Below, piece after piece: positions 2,911 to 63,821 of a stretch of 64,000 bases of DNA. Origin of the DNA: a virus (lineage: Duplodnaviria; Caudoviricetes). Made by a program: the position numbers and the translations under genes. The notes beneath the pieces are model-generated. The model was given only the letters and a program-made list of their open reading frames with translations, ran no database searches and was not told the DNA's origin. How positions within the stretch are numbered: position 1 is the stretch's first letter; every line of letters begins with the position of its first letter. Location of the stretch: the IMG/VR virus record IMGVR_UViG_3300024344_003081. One strand, given 5' to 3'.

Positions 2911-3999
2911 ATGAAAAACATCAAGTATTATGGCTTGATATGTTTTTTTATTATTATTTCACTTGTACCGATAAACATATCAGCTACAGAAAACAATTTT
3001 GGAGAAGTCGTTGAAAGGGCGAAAAAGTCAGTAGTATTACTGTCTATGAACCCTAGTGATAATCCAGAAACAAATCCAAATTCATCAGGACTATGTTCTG
3101 GTGTAGTTATAGATGATATTGGTCATGTTCTTACAAATTTTCATTGTGTTTATAATCAAAATTTTATAAAATTATATTATTATGATGAAAATGATTGGGC
3201 TGATTATGATGTAAATGTAATAGGTTTAGATCCGCTTGCAGATTTAGCAGTACTTCAAGTCTTAGGAAAAGAAGAACCGATTCCATATCTTAAATTTGCA
3301 GAAAATTCAGATAATATAACATTAGGAACTGATGTTTTTGCATTAGGGCATCCTATGGGAATGGCATGGAGTTTAACTAAGGGAATTGTTTCTAGTAATG
3401 AAAGATATGCTAGACATCCCTTTATTAAAGCAATTCAAACTGATTCTGCAATTAATAAAGGAAATTCGGGCGGTCCTCTTATGAACATGAAAGGAGAAAT
3501 CGTAGGGATTAATGCATTAATTGTTTCTAGAATTTCTGAAAGTGCAGGAATAGGTTTAGCGATTAGAGGTGATATTGCAAAAAAATCTGTTTTATCTATG
3601 TTATCTATTGGAAGAGTTGATAGACCAGCAATTGGTATTATGATTATGGAATTGGTCAATGAGAACTCAAGAAAAAAAATAATGAAAGAATTTCCTAAAC
3701 TTAAAGAAAATCATATTCCAAATACTTATGGAATATTTGTGAGGTCTGATAAAAACCCCAAAGGAATAAAGAAATTTGATACTATTGTTGCAATTAATGA
3801 TATCATGACTAATGGTCAAGTACAATTTTCTGATGAAATAAGTAAATATAATGTAGGAGATATTATTACTTTGACAGTTATACGAAAACGAAGATATTTA
3901 AAAGTTGATATTCCGTTAAAGGTTTTTCCCGTTGATGCTGATGCATTGTATTCAGTAATACGTAGACCAACATTACCAATAGTACCAGAAAATAAATGA
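2911..3999 (+). CDS. HtrA/DegP-family serine protease with PDZ domain
   Basis: Signal peptide; triad motifs TNFHCV, DLAVL, GNSGGPL; C-terminal PDZ-like region. Confidence 0.92.
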   Translation: MKNIKYYGLICFFIIISLVPINISATENNFGEVVERAKKSVVLLSMNPSDNPETNPNSSGLCSGVVIDDIGHVLTNFHCVYNQNFIKLYYYDENDWADYDVNVIGLDPLADLAVLQVLGKEEPIPYLKFAENSDNITLGTDVFALGHPMGMAWSLTKGIVSSNERYARHPFIKAIQTDSAINKGNSGGPLMNMKGEIVGINALIVSRISESAGIGLAIRGDIAKKSVLSMLSIGRVDRPAIGIMIMELVNENSRKKIMKEFPKLKENHIPNTYGIFVRSDKNPKGIKKFDTIVAINDIMTNGQVQFSDEISKYNVGDIITLTVIRKRRYLKVDIPLKVFPVDADALYSVIRRPTLPIVPENK

Positions 4000-32192: not shown

Positions 32193-32541
32193 TGAATATG
32201 CTAGTTTTGACTTCGGTTTTTCCGCAGTAGATGATGAAGAATATAAAGCAAAAACTACAGAAGTAGAAAAAAAGATTGAACAAGTAGAAGCAAAATCAAA
32301 AGATTTTTCGGCATTAGAAAAGAAAATAGATTCTGCTATTAAAGAAATCGGTTATAAAAAAGATTATTTAGAAGAAAAATATGTAGAAGATATGAGCAAA
32401 ATTGAACAATTAATTTTACCTCTTTTATATAATCTTATGAAAAATCCAGATAAGGATTATATTTATTGGCCGAATCGTGAAGAAATTATTACTAAACAAA
32501 TAGAAAAAATTAAAGATGTGACTCAAGATTTATCTAAATAG
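32176..32541 (+). CDS. Conserved T4-like hypothetical protein
   Basis: DFGFSAVDDEE...LILPLLYNLMKNPDKDYIYWPNR; start at ATG 32176. Confidence 0.65.
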   Translation: MAQIPDEYASFDFGFSAVDDEEYKAKTTEVEKKIEQVEAKSKDFSALEKKIDSAIKEIGYKKDYLEEKYVEDMSKIEQLILPLLYNLMKNPDKDYIYWPNREEIITKQIEKIKDVTQDLSK

Positions 32542-32544
32542 TTT

Positions 32545-32885
32545 TATCGATGATACTGTAGAGTAGCATTTAAGACATCGGTGCGATTCCGATCAGCTCC
32601 ACCAAAGGAACATCAATGAGTAGTGCAGATATGGCCATATTAGTAGTATTAATTGTAATTGGCATAATTATGACGGGAACTTATTTTTATTTTGGTGGGT
32701 GATTCTTTGGAGGGGCTGTAATAGAATTCGATTGGATGTGATTATACAGAGGAGATCATCTTGACAGATGTAAAATGTCATTTAAATTAATCGCAAATAA
32801 TAACGATTATTATTCAGCACAAGTGGCATTAGCCGCTTAATCGCTGGCGGGCTTATGATTGTGCCTTGGAACAGAAACAATCAGA
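32545..32885 (+). ncRNA. ssrA: Circularly permuted (two-piece) tmRNA gene: acceptor piece ending 32604, intervening segment 32605-32711, coding piece from 32712
   Basis: 3' piece ...GAC ATCGG TGCGATT CCGAT CAGCTCC ACCA precedes 5' piece GGGGCTG...GAATTCGA; inter-piece helices TTGGATGT/GCATTTAA, TACAG/CTGTA, ATCATC/GATGAT; tag ORF 32793-32840 ANNNDYYSAQVALAA*; outer ends approximate. Confidence 0.92.
32616..32702 (+). CDS. 28-aa single-TM peptide inside the tmRNA intervening segment
   Basis: AAGGAA 5 nt upstream of ATG; MSSADMAILVVLIVIGIIMTGTYFYFGG*. Confidence 0.55.
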   Translation: MSSADMAILVVLIVIGIIMTGTYFYFGG

Positions 32886-32904
32886 CACACACAACACACA
32901 CACA
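32885..32904 (+). repeat. CA-rich microsatellite-like leader
   Basis: ACACACACAACACACACACA directly before SD TAAGGAG of ORF 32917. Confidence 0.8.
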
Positions 32905-32916
32905 TAAGGAGAAAAT

Positions 32917-33144
32917 ATGTCTAATCCATATGAATTAAGATTTAGACTTTTAGAGATGGCTTCTGGTTATCTTTATGATCAACAGCAAAAACAAACACAA
33001 TTCGCTATTGATGCATGGGAATTTGCAAAAGAAGAAGGTACAGCAAATATGGAGTTGTTTAAAGACCTCCAACCCAAAAATTATACTATTGAAGACATAA
33101 AGAATAAAGCTACTGAACTTTATGAATTTGTTGAAAAAAAATAA
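32917..33144 (+). CDS. Small conserved phage protein
   Basis: NPYELRFRLLEMA...IKNKATELYEFV; strong SD. Confidence 0.75.
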   Translation: MSNPYELRFRLLEMASGYLYDQQQKQTQFAIDAWEFAKEEGTANMELFKDLQPKNYTIEDIKNKATELYEFVEKK

Positions 33145-38117: not shown

Positions 38118-39203
38118 ATGAATAAGTTAAAAATCCTTGCTGTACTCATTTTGAGTATAGCATTAATTGGTATTGCTAACGCAAAAAAGCAAGTATCAGT
38201 TGGTTATGTTCTAGTGGGACCAAAAAATGATGGCGGATGGTCAATGCGACATCATCAAGGATTTCAATCCTTAACAAAACATGGGTATGAAGTCTCAATG
38301 GTAGAAATGGTACCAGAGTCAGAATCCCAAAAAGTATTCCGTAAACTCGCAAGAAAACACGATATTGTCTTTGCAACTTCATTCGGTTATATGGATGGAA
38401 TGGTGAAAGCCGCAAAGAAAAATCCTGATACAATTTTCATGCATGCCACGGGTTACAAAGGTAACGATACAAATATGGACAACTACGTTTGTCATTCATT
38501 CCAAGCACGATATCTTACAGGAATTGCGGCTGGAATGTTGTCAAAAACAAATAAGATTGGTGTAGTTGGTTCACATCCGATACCTGAAATTATTCGTAAT
38601 ATTAATGCTCTAACTATTGGAGCCCAAACAGTAAATCCAGACATTGAAGTTAATATTGTATGGATTAACTCATGGTTCGATCCACCTAAAGATATGGATG
38701 CGGCTAAAGCACTTCTTGATGATGGAAATGATATTCTCTTTACAACAACAGATTCACCTAGTGTAGTAACTCTTGCACAACAAGCGTGGAAAACTGATGG
38801 TAAAGAAGTATGGAGTATGGGAAATGATGCGCCTATGGGAAGTAACGGACCAGATCGATACATCACGGGTATGATGTTCAACTGGAATGTTCTTTACAAA
38901 CATATAGTAGATCAACTTGCACATGGAAAACTCAAAATGAATCAAAGGTGGAATTGGGGTTTGAAAGAAAATTGTGTAGGACTATCACCATGGGGAGCAA
39001 ATGTTCCTGGCTCTGTTGTTAATAAAGTTGAAACAGTTAAAATGAACTGGATTAATGATGATTTGGATGAATGGTATCCATTCTCTCAAGGAATTACGAA
39101 ACAGGATGGTTCAACAATTCCCGCTGGTACTCTTAAAAGACCAGAATTAGAAACAATGCAATACTTTGTAAAAGGTGTTGTTAATAAATTCCCTACTAAT
39201 TAA
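38118..39203 (+). CDS. BMP/PnrA-family ABC substrate-binding protein (nucleoside/nucleobase type)
   Basis: Signal peptide; VGPKNDGGW, ATSFGY, YLTGIAAG, NALTIGA, WINSWFDP. Confidence 0.92.
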   Translation: MNKLKILAVLILSIALIGIANAKKQVSVGYVLVGPKNDGGWSMRHHQGFQSLTKHGYEVSMVEMVPESESQKVFRKLARKHDIVFATSFGYMDGMVKAAKKNPDTIFMHATGYKGNDTNMDNYVCHSFQARYLTGIAAGMLSKTNKIGVVGSHPIPEIIRNINALTIGAQTVNPDIEVNIVWINSWFDPPKDMDAAKALLDDGNDILFTTTDSPSVVTLAQQAWKTDGKEVWSMGNDAPMGSNGPDRYITGMMFNWNVLYKHIVDQLAHGKLKMNQRWNWGLKENCVGLSPWGANVPGSVVNKVETVKMNWINDDLDEWYPFSQGITKQDGSTIPAGTLKRPELETMQYFVKGVVNKFPTN

Positions 39204-40876: not shown

Positions 40877-41634
40877 AAAATATAATTCCACCAATTCTAG
40901 TCTTAATAATATTTCTATTTGTGTGGACACTAGCGGCCCATCTTTATAATATGTCTTTTCTTTTACCAAATCCCCTAGAAGTTTTACAAGCATTTATAAC
41001 AGATTTTGATATGGTTATCGGTGGACTTTGGATTACTTTTCAAGAAGCATTATATGGTTATCTTTTAGCAATCGGTATTGGTATTACTTCTGCGGCAATT
41101 ATGAGTCAATCAAAAATATTAGAACGCAGTTTCTATCCCTATGCAATATTATTACAAACACTTCCTGCAGTTGCAGTAGCTCCATTGATTGTTCTTTGGT
41201 TTGGATTTGAAATGAGATCAGTTGTTATTATAAGTTTAATTATTTCATTATTTCCAATCATTAATAATACTTTGTTAGGATTAAAATCAACATCTATTAG
41301 TTTAGTTGAACTTTTTCAAATGCATAATCAATCACGTTTTGTTAATTTTTTCAAACTTCGTTTACCAGCCGCTACTCCTAATGTTATTGCAGGATTGAGA
41401 ATATCAGCAGGATTATCTGTTATCGGTGCAATCGTAGGAGAGTTTATTATTGGCTCTGGAAGTGAAGGTGGCGGATTAGGTGTAATGATAATGTATGCAC
41501 AAGCAGATTTAGCAACTGCATTAGTAATAGCACTTATTTTTACTGCTACTGGTTTGGGGTTTGCTTTCTTTATGACAGTATCAACATTGGGACACTATCT
41601 TTTACATAACTGGCACGAATCAGAGTTAGCATGA
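40873..41634 (+). CDS. ABC transporter permease (TauC/SsuC-like)
   Basis: About 6 TM; QTLPAVAVAPL, LRLPAA, AIVGEF. Confidence 0.93.
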   Translation: MKNIIPPILVLIIFLFVWTLAAHLYNMSFLLPNPLEVLQAFITDFDMVIGGLWITFQEALYGYLLAIGIGITSAAIMSQSKILERSFYPYAILLQTLPAVAVAPLIVLWFGFEMRSVVIISLIISLFPIINNTLLGLKSTSISLVELFQMHNQSRFVNFFKLRLPAATPNVIAGLRISAGLSVIGAIVGEFIIGSGSEGGGLGVMIMYAQADLATALVIALIFTATGLGFAFFMTVSTLGHYLLHNWHESELA

Positions 41635-42686
41635 AATCAACAATAGAACGCAGAAAAACGGGATTAATTTATTGGGATATGGATTGGTCTTCTGGATGTT
41701 ATACTTTGTATGCACCACAAACTGGTAATGGTTTAGTAAAATTAATTGCTATTGATGGCGATACTGTTCACGAATGGAAACTTCCAGTAAGACCCGGTCG
41801 AGATGCAGTAATACTAGATTATGTACAAGGTCGTAAATCTGGAAATCTTGGTTACAATGGTAGTCATGCAAAGTCAGCAAATCTTTATCCATCATGGGAT
41901 ATTTGGCATGGTGGACATTTCATGGAAGTTGCACCAAACGGAGATATTGTATGGGAACATGAAGATATCTATCATCACCATGATGCTCAATGGTTGCCAA
42001 ATGGAAATTTAATCTATACAGTTGCGGCTGAATGGAATGGTAAACAATCAGATATTGTAAAAGAAGTAAATCCAAAAGGTGAAGTAGTTTGGGAATGGAG
42101 AGCATGGGAACATCTTACTAGAAAAGAGTGGTCTATACATGAATGTTTTAATGATGATCATTGGCCAATGATTAATGGTGTTTATCAAGATGGGTTTCTA
42201 CTTTATTTGAGTTTACGAACAACATCGGGTATTATTGCAGTAAATAAAAATACAAAAGAAGTAATTTGGGAATTGAAGTATCCTTTTGTAGCACAACAGC
42301 ATGATCCATCAATAACAGAACAGGGAAATTTATTGTGTTTTGATAATGGAAATATTCGTCCTAGTTCAATTCATCATTCTCGTATTGTAGAGTATGATAC
42401 AGTATCAAAAGAACTTGTATGGGAATATAAAGACCCGATGCCTTCTGCATTTTTTTCTCCGTATATGGGAAGTGTTCAAAAACTTTGGAATGGAAGTTAT
42501 TCTATTTGTGAAAGTGCATTTGGAAGAATATTCGAAGTAACTTCAGAAGGCGAATTAATGTGGGAATATGTTATACCAGAATTCGCAGAATACCCCTCAC
42601 CACTAAATAACTATATAACAGGATCACATAATAGTTGTTTTAAAGCACATCGTTACGAATCAAATACGATAACGAATATTCTCTAG
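41631..42686 (+). CDS. Arylsulfotransferase (ASST)-like beta-propeller
   Basis: HHDA..LPNGN, EVNPKGEVVWEW, HIN-like PMINGV, QQHDP, FDNG, SRIVEYD repeats. Confidence 0.8.
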   Translation: MKSTIERRKTGLIYWDMDWSSGCYTLYAPQTGNGLVKLIAIDGDTVHEWKLPVRPGRDAVILDYVQGRKSGNLGYNGSHAKSANLYPSWDIWHGGHFMEVAPNGDIVWEHEDIYHHHDAQWLPNGNLIYTVAAEWNGKQSDIVKEVNPKGEVVWEWRAWEHLTRKEWSIHECFNDDHWPMINGVYQDGFLLYLSLRTTSGIIAVNKNTKEVIWELKYPFVAQQHDPSITEQGNLLCFDNGNIRPSSIHHSRIVEYDTVSKELVWEYKDPMPSAFFSPYMGSVQKLWNGSYSICESAFGRIFEVTSEGELMWEYVIPEFAEYPSPLNNYITGSHNSCFKAHRYESNTITNIL

Positions 42687-42701: not shown

Positions 42702-43979
42702 ATGATCGGATTCAAAAAGAATCGATGGGACAATATAACACGTCCTTATACAGAAGAAGATGTAGACCGGTTAGGGGGGTCTCTCAAAATAGAATATACT
42801 CTAGCAAAAACAGGAGCAGATAAATTATGGAACAGACTACATTCTAAAAATCGAAATTATGTAAATGCATTAGGAGCATTAACAGGAAATCAAGCATTGC
42901 AACAAGCAAAAGCAGGATTAAAATCTGTTTATCTCAGTGGTTGGCAAGTAGCAGGAGATGCAAATGATAGTTTAGAAATGTATCCAGATCAATCACTATA
43001 TGCAACAAGTAGTGTACCCACAGTAATTAAAAAAATCAATAATACATTTATTCGTGCAGATCAAATTCAAACAATGGAAGGAACAGGAGATATAGATTAT
43101 TTTCTTCCTATTGTTGCTGATATGGAATCGGGATTTGGTGGAGTACTTAATACACATGAATTAATGAAAGACATGATTGAAGCAGGTGCCGCAGGTGTAC
43201 ATTTAGAAGATCAATTATCTTCTGCTAAAAAATGTGGACATATGGGAGGAAAAGTTTTAGTACCTACTCGGGAAATGATTTCTAAACTTATTTCAGCAAG
43301 ATTTGCGGCAGACATAATGGGCGTTGATACAGTAATAATTGCAAGAACAGATTCATTAGCAGGAGCATTATTGTCTTCTGATTCTGATCCTTATGATCAT
43401 AAATTTATTGAAAAAAAACAGTGGAACCACATGCTTCCACCGAAAGAAGATAGAACTGAAGAAGGTCTTTTTAGAGTAAAAGCAGGAATGGAACAAGCAG
43501 TTTCTAGAGGACTTGCATATGCACCATATTGTGATTTAATTTGGATGGAAACATCTTTACCAGACCTGGGAGAATGTAAAGAATTTATACAAGAGATTCG
43601 TAAAGAGTTTCCTGAAAAAATGTTTGCATATAATTGTTCTCCATCATTTAATTGGAAAGCAAAATTAAATGATACAGAAATACGTGATTTTCAAGATAAT
43701 TTGGGTGAATTGGGATGTAAATATCAGTTTATAACTCTTGCTGGTTTTCATAGTTTAAATTATAGTATGTTTGATTTAGCAAGAAAATATAAAAAAACAG
43801 GAATGACTGGATTTGTAGACTTACAACAAAAAGAATTTGAAGCACAGGATAAGGGTTTTACTGCAGTAAAGCATCAACGTGAAGTTGGGGCGGGTTATTT
43901 TGATGCAGTTGGGCAAATTTGTACAAATAGCAATACTTTGAGTGCAGTTGAAGGATCAACTGAACAAGAGCAATTTTAG
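42702..43979 (+). CDS. aceA: Isocitrate lyase
   Basis: [49 protein letters not shown]. Confidence 0.97.
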
Positions 43980-46343: not shown

Positions 46344-46856
46344 ATGATAATAGATTTTAATAAAAGTATTAGTGAACAATGGAAAGATCAAACTACAACA
46401 ACATCACATACAGCCGCTACGGCTGATGAAAAAGTTTTAGCAACATCAACTTTTAATACAGAAATACCATCAACAGTAATTGACATTTATAATTTTCCTA
46501 GAAAATCAAAGTCTATTGTTGCAACAAGTAAAAACAAAGAAAAGTTAATTGAATTATTTGATCTCATTGAATCAAAAAATGAAACGACATTGAAATTTAA
46601 TGAGTCAGAAGATTTATTTGTTTCTGAAGAATTTAAACATTTTAAAGAAGTTCAATTTGATATTTTTCCTCTAACAATGGATGTGAATAAGCTATTTACA
46701 GATTTTAAACAACTGTTACAGTTAAAAAATATGACTATTATTTGTAAATTTAGTCCAGAAATAGCTTGCCATGAAGTGCTAGATATGTTAAAATATGTGT
46801 TAGTATTAAAAAATAAGAATTATCCTGGAATTGTAATAATTAAAGATGAGATATGA
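46344..46856 (+). CDS. Hypothetical protein
   Basis: 170-aa ORF coupled to guaC (ATGA overlap). Confidence 0.5.
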   Translation: MIIDFNKSISEQWKDQTTTTSHTAATADEKVLATSTFNTEIPSTVIDIYNFPRKSKSIVATSKNKEKLIELFDLIESKNETTLKFNESEDLFVSEEFKHFKEVQFDIFPLTMDVNKLFTDFKQLLQLKNMTIICKFSPEIACHEVLDMLKYVLVLKNKNYPGIVIIKDEI

Positions 46857-47836
46857 GAATACAAGATGATATAAAACTTGATTTTGATGATGTTTTAATC
46901 AAGCCTAAAAGATCCACCCTAGTTTCACGTAAAAAAGCAAATCTAGAAAGAACATTTAAGTTCAAACATTCACACCATCGATGGACAGGAATTCCTATAA
47001 TTGCATCCAATATGGATCATACGGGAACTATTGCTATGGCTCATGTTCTTATGGAATTTCCCATGCTTACAGCATTGTGTAAATTTGTTGAGTCTACAGA
47101 ATGGGGATGGAATAAAAATATAATAAGAACAATCGGTCTAGATCAAAATTTAGATGAATTAACTGATGATTCAATGTGGATTTGTCTTGATGTAGCAAAT
47201 GGATATACAGAACGTTTTAATGATTATGTTGCATTAATGAGAAGACATGCCGCAACTAAAGATAGAATAATTATAGCAGGAAATGTATGTACACCAGAAG
47301 CAACAGAACAAATACTTTTAGCAGGAGCCGATATCGTAAAAATAGGAATAGGTCCTGGATCGGTGTGTACAACTCGCAAAATGACAGGCGTTGGATATCC
47401 ACAATTAAGTGCTACAATGGAATGTGGAGATGCGGCCCATGGTCTAGGAGGACACATAATTACAGACGGAGGATGCACAGTTGTAGGAGATATTGCAAAA
47501 AGTTTTGGAGGTGGTGCAGATTTTGTAATGCTTGGTGGTATGTTAGCAGGGCACAAAGAATGCGAAGGAGAAATAGAAGATGACAAAATGATATTTTATG
47601 GAATGTCTTCAACTGAAGCACAAATAAAACATCATGGTGGAAAAAAATCTCATAGAGCATCAGAAGGAAAAGCAGTTATGATAGATTACAGAGGTAATGT
47701 AGCAGATACAGTACAAGAAATCTTAGGAGGATTACGAAGTTCATGTACATATGCTGGTGCAAAATCAATTAAAGACTTGCCCAAATGTACTACATTTGTT
47801 AAGGTTAATCGACAGTTAAATACGGTATTTAATTGA
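46853..47836 (+). CDS. guaC: GMP reductase
   Basis: LDFDDVLIKPKRSTL, CLDVANGY, KIGIGPGSVCTTR, FYGMSS, RASEGK, GGLRSSCTY. Confidence 0.95.
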   Translation: MRIQDDIKLDFDDVLIKPKRSTLVSRKKANLERTFKFKHSHHRWTGIPIIASNMDHTGTIAMAHVLMEFPMLTALCKFVESTEWGWNKNIIRTIGLDQNLDELTDDSMWICLDVANGYTERFNDYVALMRRHAATKDRIIIAGNVCTPEATEQILLAGADIVKIGIGPGSVCTTRKMTGVGYPQLSATMECGDAAHGLGGHIITDGGCTVVGDIAKSFGGGADFVMLGGMLAGHKECEGEIEDDKMIFYGMSSTEAQIKHHGGKKSHRASEGKAVMIDYRGNVADTVQEILGGLRSSCTYAGAKSIKDLPKCTTFVKVNRQLNTVFN

Positions 47837-61609: not shown

Positions 61610-61999
61610 ATGAAAACATTTACTACATTTTTAAACGAAAATATAACTCAAAAGCAACTGAATGCTATAGAATCATATGCTGATAGGTTATTTAGAGCCG
61701 TTGATATAGATGTAGAATTCACCAGACATTTTATTGATCGTGTTAATGATAGTCGAAATAAGAAGCAAATTACACAGTCTGAATTGATACGATTATTTAA
61801 ACAAACTTATAAAAAGCATGGAAAACATATCCCACAAATGGGAGATGAAGCACAGGCAGTTATAAGGGATATGCAAACCGATATCAATATGCCATTTGTA
61901 TTAGCATATGATAATCGAAATAAAGAACTCGATTTGGTCGCTAAGACCATCATGAGAAAAAAAGGATTCAAAACATCTAACAAGAAGTTAGATATATAA
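61610..61999 (+). CDS. Conserved T4-like protein with capsid-targeting-like N-terminus
   Basis: MKTFTTFLNE start; VEFTRHFIDRVND, DINMPFVL, KTIMRK. Confidence 0.65.
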   Translation: MKTFTTFLNENITQKQLNAIESYADRLFRAVDIDVEFTRHFIDRVNDSRNKKQITQSELIRLFKQTYKKHGKHIPQMGDEAQAVIRDMQTDINMPFVLAYDNRNKELDLVAKTIMRKKGFKTSNKKLDI

Positions 62000-62017
62000 T
62001 TTAGAAATTGACAATAT

Positions 62018-62025
62018 TATAAATA
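62018..62025 (+). promoter_or_regulatory. T4-type late promoter
   Basis: TATAAATA upstream of the AsnRS-like gene. Confidence 0.55.
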
Positions 62026-62043
62026 AAAAGGAAATTGGAAAAT

Positions 62044-62889
62044 ATGACTACATTAATTTCACCCCAAGATTTCACCAACGCCACAAATCAACTCAGAACT
62101 TTCTTTAATGACCTCGGATTTCTTGAAGTCCATACGCAAAATCGTCTTTCGATTCTTGCCGCTTGTGAAGATCCAACTACAGTTTCCACTTACGATTATG
62201 CAGGAAATATTTGGCCTCTTCCTCAGACTGGTCAAATGTGGCTGGAATACGAATTACTACAAAATCCCGATTTAAAAGGCGTATACTGTGTATCAACATC
62301 GTATCGACAAGAACAAAATCCAGTAGCAGGAAGACATGATTTGATCTTTCCAATGTTTGAATTTGAAGCACCAGGTACATTTGATGATTTAATAGAGATG
62401 GAAGAAAACTTAGTTTGTCATCTTGGATTCAGACCATGTGTATATCCTATTAAAAGATATACTGAATGGCAAGAAGAATTCAATACAACTGAAGAATTAA
62501 ATCACGAACACGAACAAATGATTTCAGATTCACATACCAACATTCAACAAGCAGGTGTGGGTTTTATTACACATTTTCCCTATACTACATCACCCTTTTG
62601 GAATATGAAGAAAGAAGGAGAATTTGCTAACAAATGTGATGTTATTATAGATGGAATGGAAACTATTGGATCTGCAGAAAGATCCGCTGATACAGTAGAA
62701 ATGAGAGAACAATTTCATACAATATCAGATGGAGAATATGCTAGTTTATTGTACGAATTATTTGGAAAAGAGAGAGTAGAAAAAGAATTAGAGGAATTTT
62801 TAAGTTATGATTTCTTTCCTAGATATGGAGGAGGAATCGGAGTAACAAGACTTATTAGTGCTTTGAAAAATTGTGGAGTGGCGAAATAG
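62044..62889 (+). CDS. Class II aaRS catalytic-domain-only paralog (AsnRS-like / archaeal-type asparagine synthetase family)
   Basis: Motif 1 LRTFF...GFLEV, LPQTGQMWLE, motif 2 SYRQE...RHDLIFPMFEFE, ETIGSAER, motif 3 PRYGGGIGVTRL; no N-terminal OB anticodon domain. Confidence 0.85.
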   Translation: MTTLISPQDFTNATNQLRTFFNDLGFLEVHTQNRLSILAACEDPTTVSTYDYAGNIWPLPQTGQMWLEYELLQNPDLKGVYCVSTSYRQEQNPVAGRHDLIFPMFEFEAPGTFDDLIEMEENLVCHLGFRPCVYPIKRYTEWQEEFNTTEELNHEHEQMISDSHTNIQQAGVGFITHFPYTTSPFWNMKKEGEFANKCDVIIDGMETIGSAERSADTVEMREQFHTISDGEYASLLYELFGKERVEKELEEFLSYDFFPRYGGGIGVTRLISALKNCGVAK

Positions 62890-62962
62890 GTAAACGCAAC
62901 CAGTTGTTTACTGGTCGAGTCGGGGCAGACTTTTGAAGGTTCGAATCCTTCCTCCACAGCCA
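62872..62962 (+). tRNA. Non-canonical tRNA, anticodon GTT (Asn), with long variable arm
   Basis: Acceptor TGTGGAG/CTCCACA + G + CCA; D arm GCG..CGC; anticodon arm ACCAG-TTGTTTA-CTGGT; 19-nt variable region with GAGTC/GACTT stem; T arm GAAGG-TTCGAAT-CCTTC. Confidence 0.85.
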
Positions 62963-62981: not shown

Positions 62982-63821
62982 ATGAAAGAACTATTTATGA
63001 AAATATTGATTACTGGATCCCGTGGATATATCGGATATAATCTAATTCAATACCTTCAGAGACATGCCCCTGAGATCGAATTAATAGGTCTCGATTCTAC
63101 ATTTAAAGAATTATCAAAAAAATCTAAAGACAAACTTAGACATGATCATATATTAGATATTCTGCATATTGATGATACAATATTAGAAGCAGAATTACCT
63201 CTGGATGTTACGCATGTGATTCATCTAGCGGGAAAAACAGGTGTCAGACAATCATGGGATGCAGAAGACCTCAAATCCTATTATGTAGATAATGTATTAT
63301 CAACTCAACGAATTTTTAATGTATATTCTAGACCTCCATATAAAACAGATATTCCAATCCTATATGCAACAAGTTCTTCTGCAATTGAAATGAAATCTCC
63401 TTATGCAATGACACAAGCAATGAAAGAATCAATAGCACCATCAACTGCAATAGGAATGAGATTTTTCACAGTTTGGGGTGGAGAATATCCTAGACATGAT
63501 ATGTTATATGGAAAAGCATTAAGAGATGGTATAGATGAACTTACAGAGAATGAAAGAGATTTTACACATATACACTATGTTTGCGAATCAATTTATGCAT
63601 TAATTCTTTCGACAGATACTACAAAGTTTTCTGGAAGAAAATTGGACATATATGATATAGGAACTGGTGAACCTAGAACACCAAAGAAGTTCTTAGAAGA
63701 TATAGATATTTTACCTACAACTGTTCTTGATTCAATTCCAATAGTAGAAAATGAATTTGAATCACGAAGTACTAAAGCAGATCCAACTGAAATTGAGAAA
63801 ATTAGAAAGAGATTCTTGTGA
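62982..63821 (+). CDS. NAD-dependent epimerase/dehydratase (extended SDR)
   Basis: ILITGSRGYIG, VIHLAG..GVR, ATSSS, PYAMTQ, RFFTVWG, RDFTHI. Confidence 0.88.
   Translation: MKELFMKILITGSRGYIGYNLIQYLQRHAPEIELIGLDSTFKELSKKSKDKLRHDHILDILHIDDTILEAELPLDVTHVIHLAGKTGVRQSWDAEDLKSYYVDNVLSTQRIFNVYSRPPYKTDIPILYATSSSAIEMKSPYAMTQAMKESIAPSTAIGMRFFTVWGGEYPRHDMLYGKALRDGIDELTENERDFTHIHYVCESIYALILSTDTTKFSGRKLDIYDIGTGEPRTPKKFLEDIDILPTTVLDSIPIVENEFESRSTKADPTEIEKIRKRFL

Follow-up and report, generated by a model that had tools for sequence, protein, structure and literature searches.

Truncated paralogs of the class IIb aminoacyl-tRNA synthetases are known in which only the catalytic core is kept. AS-AR ('AsnRS2'; PDB 3P8T, 3REU, 1NNH) and bacterial AsnA are core-only enzymes that synthesize the amide independently of tRNA, and AS-AR reportedly accompanies asparaginyl-tRNA synthetase (AsnRS) in archaea. 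EpmA (GenX, PoxA; PDB 3A5Y), the EF-P lysyl transferase, is likewise a class IIb core that has no anticodon domain. In another class, Glu-Q-RS (YadB) is a truncated GluRS that aminoacylates queuosine-34 of tRNA-Asp. Deliberately mismatched synthetase-tRNA pairs have been described as well, namely ProRS-x with tRNA-ProX and the allo-tRNAs (PMC5389517). Here we analysed a 64,000-nt stretch of marine viral DNA (Duplodnaviria; Caudoviricetes; IMG/VR record IMGVR_UViG_3300024344_003081), hereafter the window, in which an AsnRS-like open reading frame (ORF) at 62044-62889 (+) runs into a gene for tRNA(GUU). The AsnRS-like protein and its family are called X. The original prediction, made from the sequence of the window, regarded the two genes as a candidate private synthetase-tRNA pair. 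We found that enzyme and tRNA are tightly linked in marine phages and that each also occurs without the other.

Results

Linkage of the enzyme and the tRNA

The cassette in the window consists of the following features.

62044..62889, + strand: X ORF, 281-aa class IIb synthetase catalytic core with an AsnRS-type pocket, without an anticodon-binding domain and without the C-terminal strand
62872..62962, + strand: tRNA(GUU), 91 nt, with U1:A72, G73, encoded CCA, a Leu-type D-arm and U37
62872..62889, + strand: overlap of ORF and tRNA, 18 nt; the TAG of X is tRNA nucleotides 16-18, in the D-loop
62906..62908, + strand: anticodon GTT; each of the 53 distinct relatives that were parsed has this triplet
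62916..62934, + strand: variable arm, 19 nt, with a predicted 5-bp stem and 6-nt loop

In IMG/VR, at least 575 viral contigs carry a relative of X. Starting from the enzyme, we assembled 83 marine viral loci, including the window and two Prochlorococcus phage loci, and searched them for tRNAs with ARAGORN, a covariance model of the tRNA family (R1) and nhmmer. A same-strand tRNA was located between -18 and +226 nt from the X stop in 73 loci; three of the other ten were cut by the contig end and seven had 0.9-3 kb of downstream sequence. The reverse test was started from a tRNA-only sequence signature and listed 80 viral loci, in which the enzyme was found just upstream of the tRNA in 73, whereas three were cut and four lacked it (73/77 judgeable loci). 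The linkage in the marine phage clade is thus real, and the co-occurrence across phage genomes that had been proposed as a check was borne out. Lack of linkage had been named as an outcome that would speak against the pair; it was not observed, since homologous genes are tightly linked to such tRNAs.

The 18-nt overlap with the stop codon in the D-loop was confirmed for the window, but it is a lineage detail. Only 5 of the 73 related cassettes overlap, with an identical -18 overlap in L003, L013 and L016, and the others are gapped by 4-226 nt. The two Prochlorococcus phages, P-SSM2 and P-SSM7, have the same gene order: an 87-88-nt tRNA(GUU) starts 7-9 nt past the stop of the enzyme, whose annotation there is 'tRNA ligase'. 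The GenBank tRNA-Asn of P-SSM2 (PSSM2_199; L002, AY939844.2) is misplaced at 164094-164179, inside a CDS, and the true tRNA lies directly after the 'tRNA ligase' (3741-3828 of the locus). No paper describing this enzyme-tRNA cassette was found in the literature.

A tRNA of Asn identity on a Leu-type body

ARAGORN identified the tRNA as tRNA-Asn(gtt) at 62872-62962, which scored 52.1 bits (E 1e-9) with the Rfam tRNA model and 89 bits with R1. The acceptor stem UGUGGAG/CUCCACA gives U1:A72, and it is followed by G73 at 62959 and CCA at 62960-62962. The anticodon loop UUGUUUA places U at position 37, and the D-stem is of the Leu type with 3 bp. Both the Asn identity set and the long variable arm that had been assigned to this tRNA were therefore present. 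Among the 53 distinct relatives, U1, G73 and GUU were found in all, A72 in 52 and the encoded CCA in 46. Position 37 was U in 41 and A in 4 of them, and position 33 was other than U in six. Covariation was detected in 16 of 20 cloverleaf pairs in 48 relatives; in the same analysis, U1:A72 and G73 were invariant while pairs 2:71 to 7:66 covaried freely. The variable region of the family spans 5-39 nt, 5 nt corresponding to an ordinary class I loop. R1 scored a genuine phage tRNA-Leu(UAA) at 64 bits, and the body of the cassette tRNA is Leu-like. In five larger phage fragments the cassette tRNA is the sole tRNA-Asn. As judged from its sequence, it appears to be a functional tRNA with Asn identity on a Leu-type body. 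A blastn search with the window tRNA against cultured phages gave no match, the query being too short and too divergent. Two further loci (L054:3872-3971 and L059:2742-2840) contain diverged copies of the cassette tRNA with the T-loop GGTCCGA and weak model scores, which may be decaying or further remodelled.

X is a catalytic core with an AsnRS-type pocket

The X ORF starts at ATG 62044 or TTG 62035 and ends with TAG at 62887-62889. PF00152 (class II D/K/N core) was its only Pfam match and covered residues 12-274 (E 5.6e-19). Pfam detected no OB-fold anticodon-binding domain at the N-terminus, where the protein begins at the catalytic domain, and no anticodon domain was found in the neighbouring upstream ORF 61610-61999. 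A search for longer relatives yielded no OB-fold-bearing forms; the longer forms were fusions with PyrD. X is, as had been predicted, an anticodon-domain-less Asn/Asp-type catalytic core. The class II Asp/Asn motifs ascribed to it held for motifs 2 and 3, which come with an Asn-type pocket, but motif 1 lacks the usual proline and reads EVHTQNR in the alignment where AsnRS and AspRS show TP. The last ~15-20 residues, which form the RDVIPFPR strand of AsnRS, AspRS, GenX and AS-AR, are also missing.

The positions that discriminate between Asp and Asn are AsnRS-like in X: TGQMWLE resembles SGQLNGE of AsnRS, whereas AspRS has SPQLFKQ, and the second stretch MFEFE resembles MLEPE of AsnRS, whereas AspRS has QIDVE. 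Alignment to E. coli AsnRS revealed R88, E90, RH, E106/E108, R213 (the pocket arginine) and R269 in X, as well as the AsnRS-like RH..F.MFEFE and ETIGSAER. Throughout the X family, motifs 2 and 3 retain the arginines of the ATP site without exception. Since X combines these with the AsnRS-type pocket residues, its substrate for adenylation is most likely an acid shaped like Asn or Asp.

None of the curated NCBIfam models reached its cut-off with X. The top match was to non-discriminating AspRS (NF003483, 45 bits vs 353), and the asnS model (TIGR00457, cut-off 342.6 bits) was absent from the matches. Archaeal asparagine synthetase A (NF005055) gave 20.2 bits against a cut-off of 389, and the EpmA models gave 23.8 vs 286.9 bits (TIGR00462) and 24.9 vs 264 bits (NF006828). 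By curated models X thus lies outside AS-AR, AsnA and EpmA, and the AS-AR membership that had been considered is not upheld. A Protein Atlas lookup with X returned its own family only.

The AF2 model of X was confident (pLDDT 89). Ranked by Z, its best fold match was AsnRS (Z 26.8, 25% identity, rmsd 2.6 Å over 250 residues), and the matches to archaeal AspRS (Z 26.2, 20% identity), AS-AR (3REU, 3REX and 3P8T; Z 23.3-23.7, 18-19% identity) and GenX (3A5Y; Z 23.4, 18% identity) scored lower. AS-AR chains were absent from a PDB profile search with X at E 0.001. No AS-AR sequence for a residue-level alignment was obtained from 101 Thermoplasmatota genomes or controls, and the comparison of X with AS-AR is one of fold scores. 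The pocket and fold of X are nearest AsnRS rather than archaeal asparagine synthetase A.

Each part occurs without the other

Four related contigs, two of which are complete 195-kb genomes, carry a long-arm U37 tRNA(GUU) without X, and X was found nowhere in the two complete phage genomes. Three of these four contigs also have a canonical A37 tRNA-Asn in the vicinity. Within this X-less lineage, one anticodon-stem pair has changed from G:C to A:U. Because this change is compensatory, it indicates that the tRNA structure is still under selection without X. Conversely, X occurs without a linked tRNA in ~10% of the viral loci, one such record having an ordinary tRNA-Asn elsewhere. The tRNA is also missing from huge phages with 42-49% identical enzymes and from all the cellular loci sampled (Patescibacteria, Bacteroidota, Alphaproteobacteria). 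Since enzyme and tRNA each occur without the other, a strictly private enzyme-tRNA pair is unlikely. The orthogonality of the pair was rejected in its strict form by the complete phages that keep the tRNA without the enzyme, and a tRNA-bound role is not supported for the whole family, given the tRNA-less viral loci, huge phages, cellular members and PyrD fusions.

The original prediction further held that the enzyme recognizes the tRNA through its variable arm, in the manner of SerRS. The variable region is 5-7 nt in L003 and L004, near relatives of the window, versus 19 nt in the window itself, and it is 7 nt in L010 versus 20 nt in L011, with enzyme branch lengths of 0.01-0.05. Because short and long forms stand beside closely related, even near-identical, enzymes, the arm is not a SerRS-style handle, and this route of recognition was rejected.

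The wider X family

Relatives of X with 55-64% identity were found in 384 loci of species-representative genomes, mostly of Patescibacteria with some Bacteroidota, Alphaproteobacteria and Bdellovibrionota. A few of the loci are marine phage contigs mis-binned into metagenome-assembled genomes, one being a 100% match to the window. The motifs EVHTQ.RLSILAACEDP, WPLPQTGQMWLE, FPMFEFE, ETIGSAER and GGGIG.TR are invariant in the relatives. When the tree was rooted on E. coli AsnRS, itself a long branch, the cellular members took basal positions and the marine viral clade with linked tRNAs came out nested (SH-aLRT 84-86); the presence of the tRNA changes ~6-8 times on this tree.

The order Dus-X-DnaX, in which Dus is a tRNA-modifying enzyme, was observed in 16 of 65 cellular loci, and gatC-gatA-X in two loci of Gracilibacteria/Peribacteria (L139 and L170). 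PyrD or a PyrE-F fusion adjoins X in one alphaproteobacterium and three Bacteroidota (L138, L161, L157 and L179). PyrD and X are fused into one protein in at least eight clusters with 50-54% identity to X. The fusions L322-L325 (584-661 aa) lie on freshwater metagenome contigs with a thymidine kinase next door. These contigs are giant-virus-like, with RING fingers, eIF4E and a TBP-like gene, and no tRNA was found near the fusions on them. A different fusion was seen in P0130 (614 aa), where a GIY-YIG/NUMOD3 homing-endonuclease module and an AsnRS-like core share one gene call, which hints that the cassette can be mobile.

Among Patescibacteria, X was present in 2 of 151 evenly sampled genomes. 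asnS was found in 6 of 50 X-bearing genomes versus 19 of 151 background genomes, PyrD in 10 of 50 versus 49 of 151, and GatB was present wherever tested. X thus showed no association with AsnRS in either direction in this group, as would be expected neither of a substitute for AsnRS nor of a supplier of free Asn tied to it, and a tie of X to PyrD was not seen either. Replacement of GatB by X in the gatC-gatA-X genomes was also rejected; GatB is encoded elsewhere in the same genomes. Replacement of PyrC by X was considered for five PyrD-X genomes; all have PyrC-like matches, one above the cut-off and four below the cut-off only, and type II PyrC was found in none of the five. No simple role explains every context of X.

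Genomic setting and expression

The window comes from a T4-like myovirus and encodes the gp45 clamp, the gp44 clamp loader, UvsX, a gp41-like helicase and a polymerase of family B. The cassette is preceded by the following motif.

62018..62025, + strand: late-promoter-like motif TATAAATA, T4-type, 26 nt upstream of the ATG

All seven copies of TATAAATA in the window are on the coding strand. Of 67 distinct related loci, 22 have the motif no more than 100 nt before the enzyme gene, with a background of ~0.01 per 100 nt, and it is predicted to act as a promoter. Four marine metatranscriptome studies yielded six short contigs that matched parts of the X ORF (61984-62241 and 62625-62878) at 99% or more, and none ran past 62878, which lies 6 nt inside the tRNA. 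They hint weakly that X is transcribed, with a transcript end or processing near the tRNA 5' end, DNA carry-over being possible. An NAD-dependent epimerase/dehydratase-like gene (62982-63821, +) begins 19 nt past the tRNA, and the tRNA therefore lies inside a polycistronic stretch.

Elsewhere in the window, a permuted (two-piece) tmRNA gene was found at 32512-32931 (+) with the tag ANNNDYYSAQVALAA. Since similar tmRNAs with ANDN... tags occur in the related phage loci L065, L078 and L272, alphaproteobacterial-type hosts are suggested for these phages. A phage isocitrate lyase gene (42702-43979, +; PF00463, E 1e-103) adjoins an arylsulfotransferase-like gene at 41631-42686. The gene at 38118-39203 (+) encodes a PnrA/Bmp-like ABC substrate-binding protein, and together with a permease, an ABC ATPase and an SbmA/BacA-like transporter from elsewhere in the window it resembles a phage-borne uptake system. 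An IMPDH/GMP-reductase-family gene (46853-47836, +), ThyX and dUTPase make up a nucleotide-metabolism set.

Discussion

We tentatively favour the explanation that the two genes form a co-inherited late cassette of a tRNA-independent, AsnRS-derived adenylating ligase and a remodelled, host-charged tRNA-Asn. In marine T4-like myoviruses they would be a compact two-gene unit, co-transcribed and expressed late. X would be a stand-alone adenylate-forming ligase that arose from AsnRS, keeping the ATP site and the Asn-shaped pocket and losing the anticodon reader, and its core chemistry would be independent of tRNA. Most likely it would form an amide bond on an Asp- or Asn-shaped acid, as in the AS-A-type conversion of Asp to Asn; in an alternative, intramolecular form, it might close carbamoyl-aspartate to dihydroorotate, a cyclic ureide of Asn. 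The tRNA would be a working tRNA-Asn rebuilt on a Leu-type body, which decodes AAY codons. Work on E. coli, Thermus and Staphylococcus established GUU and G73 as identity elements for AsnRS and non-discriminating AspRS, and U1:A72 for GatCAB. Since the cassette tRNA keeps all of these, it is probably charged by the host. The enzyme need not touch the tRNA. The common theme would be the supply of asparagine or amide in late protein synthesis, and we propose that the parts are inherited as a unit because both serve it. This explanation draws on the linkage, on the conserved Asn-like tRNA, on the loci in which either part stands alone, on the PyrD and gatC-gatA contexts of X, and on the labile variable arm.

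Several observations weigh against this explanation. Genes related by a common theme alone are not usually kept side by side so closely or for so long; this pair is still adjacent at 58% enzyme identity, and from cyanophages through to phages with an alphaproteobacterial-type tmRNA. The odd build of the tRNA, with its Leu body, frequent U37 (41/53) and occasional non-U33 (6/53), is unexplained for a mere extra decoder. X is nearer AsnRS than AS-AR in both sequence and fold. Neither the supply of free Asn to AsnRS nor that of dihydroorotate to PyrD fits Patescibacteria, in view of the asnS (6/50 vs 19/151) and PyrD (10/50 vs 49/151) counts.

In a second explanation X acts on the tRNA directly, which we consider rather unlikely. 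An anticodon-blind, AsnRS-type X would read the acceptor end (U1:A72, G73) and attach Asn or amidate tRNA-bound Asp, so that the phage could supply itself with Asn-tRNA. The long arm would not be a handle and could do no more than repel host class IIb enzymes. Such a pair is consistent with the very tight reciprocal linkage in common orientation, sometimes with overlap, and with an Asn-type pocket and AsnRS as the nearest fold beside a tRNA of Asn identity. It would also agree with the invariance of U1:A72 and G73 amid the freely covarying pairs 2:71 to 7:66, the relaxed anticodon-loop context at positions 33 and 37, and the tRNA-flavoured gatC-gatA-X and Dus-X neighbourhoods in Patescibacteria. 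However, complete phages that have no X still maintain the tRNA under structural selection, giant-virus-like contigs encode X fused to PyrD with no tRNA nearby, and no cellular member sampled has a linked tRNA. Moreover, X is not depleted in AsnRS-positive Patescibacteria, the length of the variable arm is unconstrained, and we know of no catalytic-core-only class IIb paralog (AsnA, AS-AR, EpmA) that charges tRNA. A role of X in modifying the tRNA instead of charging its 3' end, by analogy with Glu-Q-RS, appears highly improbable. The loss of the anticodon domain would parallel YadB, the loop positions on either side of the invariant G34-U35-U36 drift, and Dus adjoins X in a quarter of the cellular loci (16/65). 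On the other hand, bacterial TGT needs U33 to insert the queuosine precursor and 6 of the 53 tRNAs lack it, PyrD fusions and tRNA-less members of X do not suit this role, and to our knowledge no tRNA modification of this kind exists. The table of PMC9437257 lists YadB as lacking the anticodon domain.

The PyrD fusions in at least eight protein clusters, and the adjacency of PyrD or PyrE-F to X in two bacterial phyla, raise another explanation, in which X is a pyrimidine-pathway ligase. It would close carbamoyl-aspartate to dihydroorotate at the expense of ATP, for example, or catalyse another dihydroorotate or orotate reaction, and the tRNA would be a passenger, perhaps a 3'-end processing or stability element of the message or a recombination hitch-hiker. 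From its chemistry, dihydroorotate may be regarded sterically as an N,N'-carbonyl-bridged asparagine, which would suit an AsnRS-type pocket, and four of the five PyrD-X genomes have only sub-cut-off matches to PyrC. The homolog fused to a GIY-YIG homing endonuclease, or merged with it in the gene call, hints at mobility. Nevertheless, we regard this explanation as distinctly doubtful: 80% of the X-bearing Patescibacteria lack PyrD, which is not enriched in carriers, each of the five genomes tested has PyrC-like genes, and a passenger would not be expected to be constantly of the Asn type with GUU, G73, U1:A72 and CCA.

The cassette is abundant, being represented among the viral IMG/VR contigs and in cultured Prochlorococcus phages, where the enzyme is annotated just as 'tRNA ligase'. 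If X acts on the tRNA, the two genes would be a natural phage-borne, semi-orthogonal synthetase-tRNA pair, X would be the first catalytic-core-only class IIb enzyme shown to act on tRNA, and a minimal synthetase working without an anticodon domain would be added. If X belongs to pyrimidine synthesis, the PyrD fusions would point to a new AsnRS-derived metabolic ligase tied to that pathway. The tRNA itself may represent a new class of phage tRNA with Asn identity, a Leu body and U37. Since P-SSM2 and P-SSM7 are in culture, the question is directly testable.

Among the known systems, canonical AsnRS (class IIb; e.g. PDB 2XTI, 8TC8, 1X54 and 9SH8) is the top structural match of X and shares with it the pocket motif versions [ST]GQ..xE, RH..F.M.E.E, E.IG..xR and G.G.G..R. 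Unlike AsnRS, X is without the N-terminal OB-fold, the hinge, the C-terminal strand and the motif 1 proline. AS-AR and AsnA are similar to X in length, and their tRNA-independent amide synthesis provides a precedent for its chemistry. However, AS-AR has neither a linked tRNA nor a PyrD fusion, whereas the X family has both, and X is independent of AsnRS in Patescibacteria, unlike AS-AR alongside archaeal AsnRS. EpmA resembles X as a core without an anticodon domain, but its pocket is of the Lys type (SPE..MKR) and that of X is of the Asx type (TGQ..LE). Glu-Q-RS, ProRS-x/tRNA-ProX and the allo-tRNAs combine a truncated or duplicated synthetase with an unusual tRNA, as does the X cassette; unlike X, these systems involve another synthetase class or an intact anticodon domain. 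In the X cassette there is no sign of recoding, the identity elements and anticodon of the tRNA agreeing on Asn.

The cassette tRNA shares GUU, U1:A72 and G73 with bacterial tRNA-Asn. Unlike the latter, which has a 4-5-nt variable loop and A37, the t6A site, the window tRNA has a 19-nt arm, U37 and a Leu-type D-arm; L094 and L224:3594-3669 served as canonical phage tRNA-Asn genes for comparison. The long variable arm and the Leu-type D-arm are common to class II tRNAs (Leu, Tyr and Ser), but Leu and Tyr tRNAs need A73 and their own anticodons, whereas the cassette tRNA keeps invariant GUU and G73. The closest described counterparts of the whole cassette are the annotations of P-SSM2, P-SSM5 and P-SSM7, which list a 'tRNA ligase' and a tRNA-Asn, and in P-SSM7 and P-SSM2 the two genes stand in the same enzyme-tRNA order as in the window.

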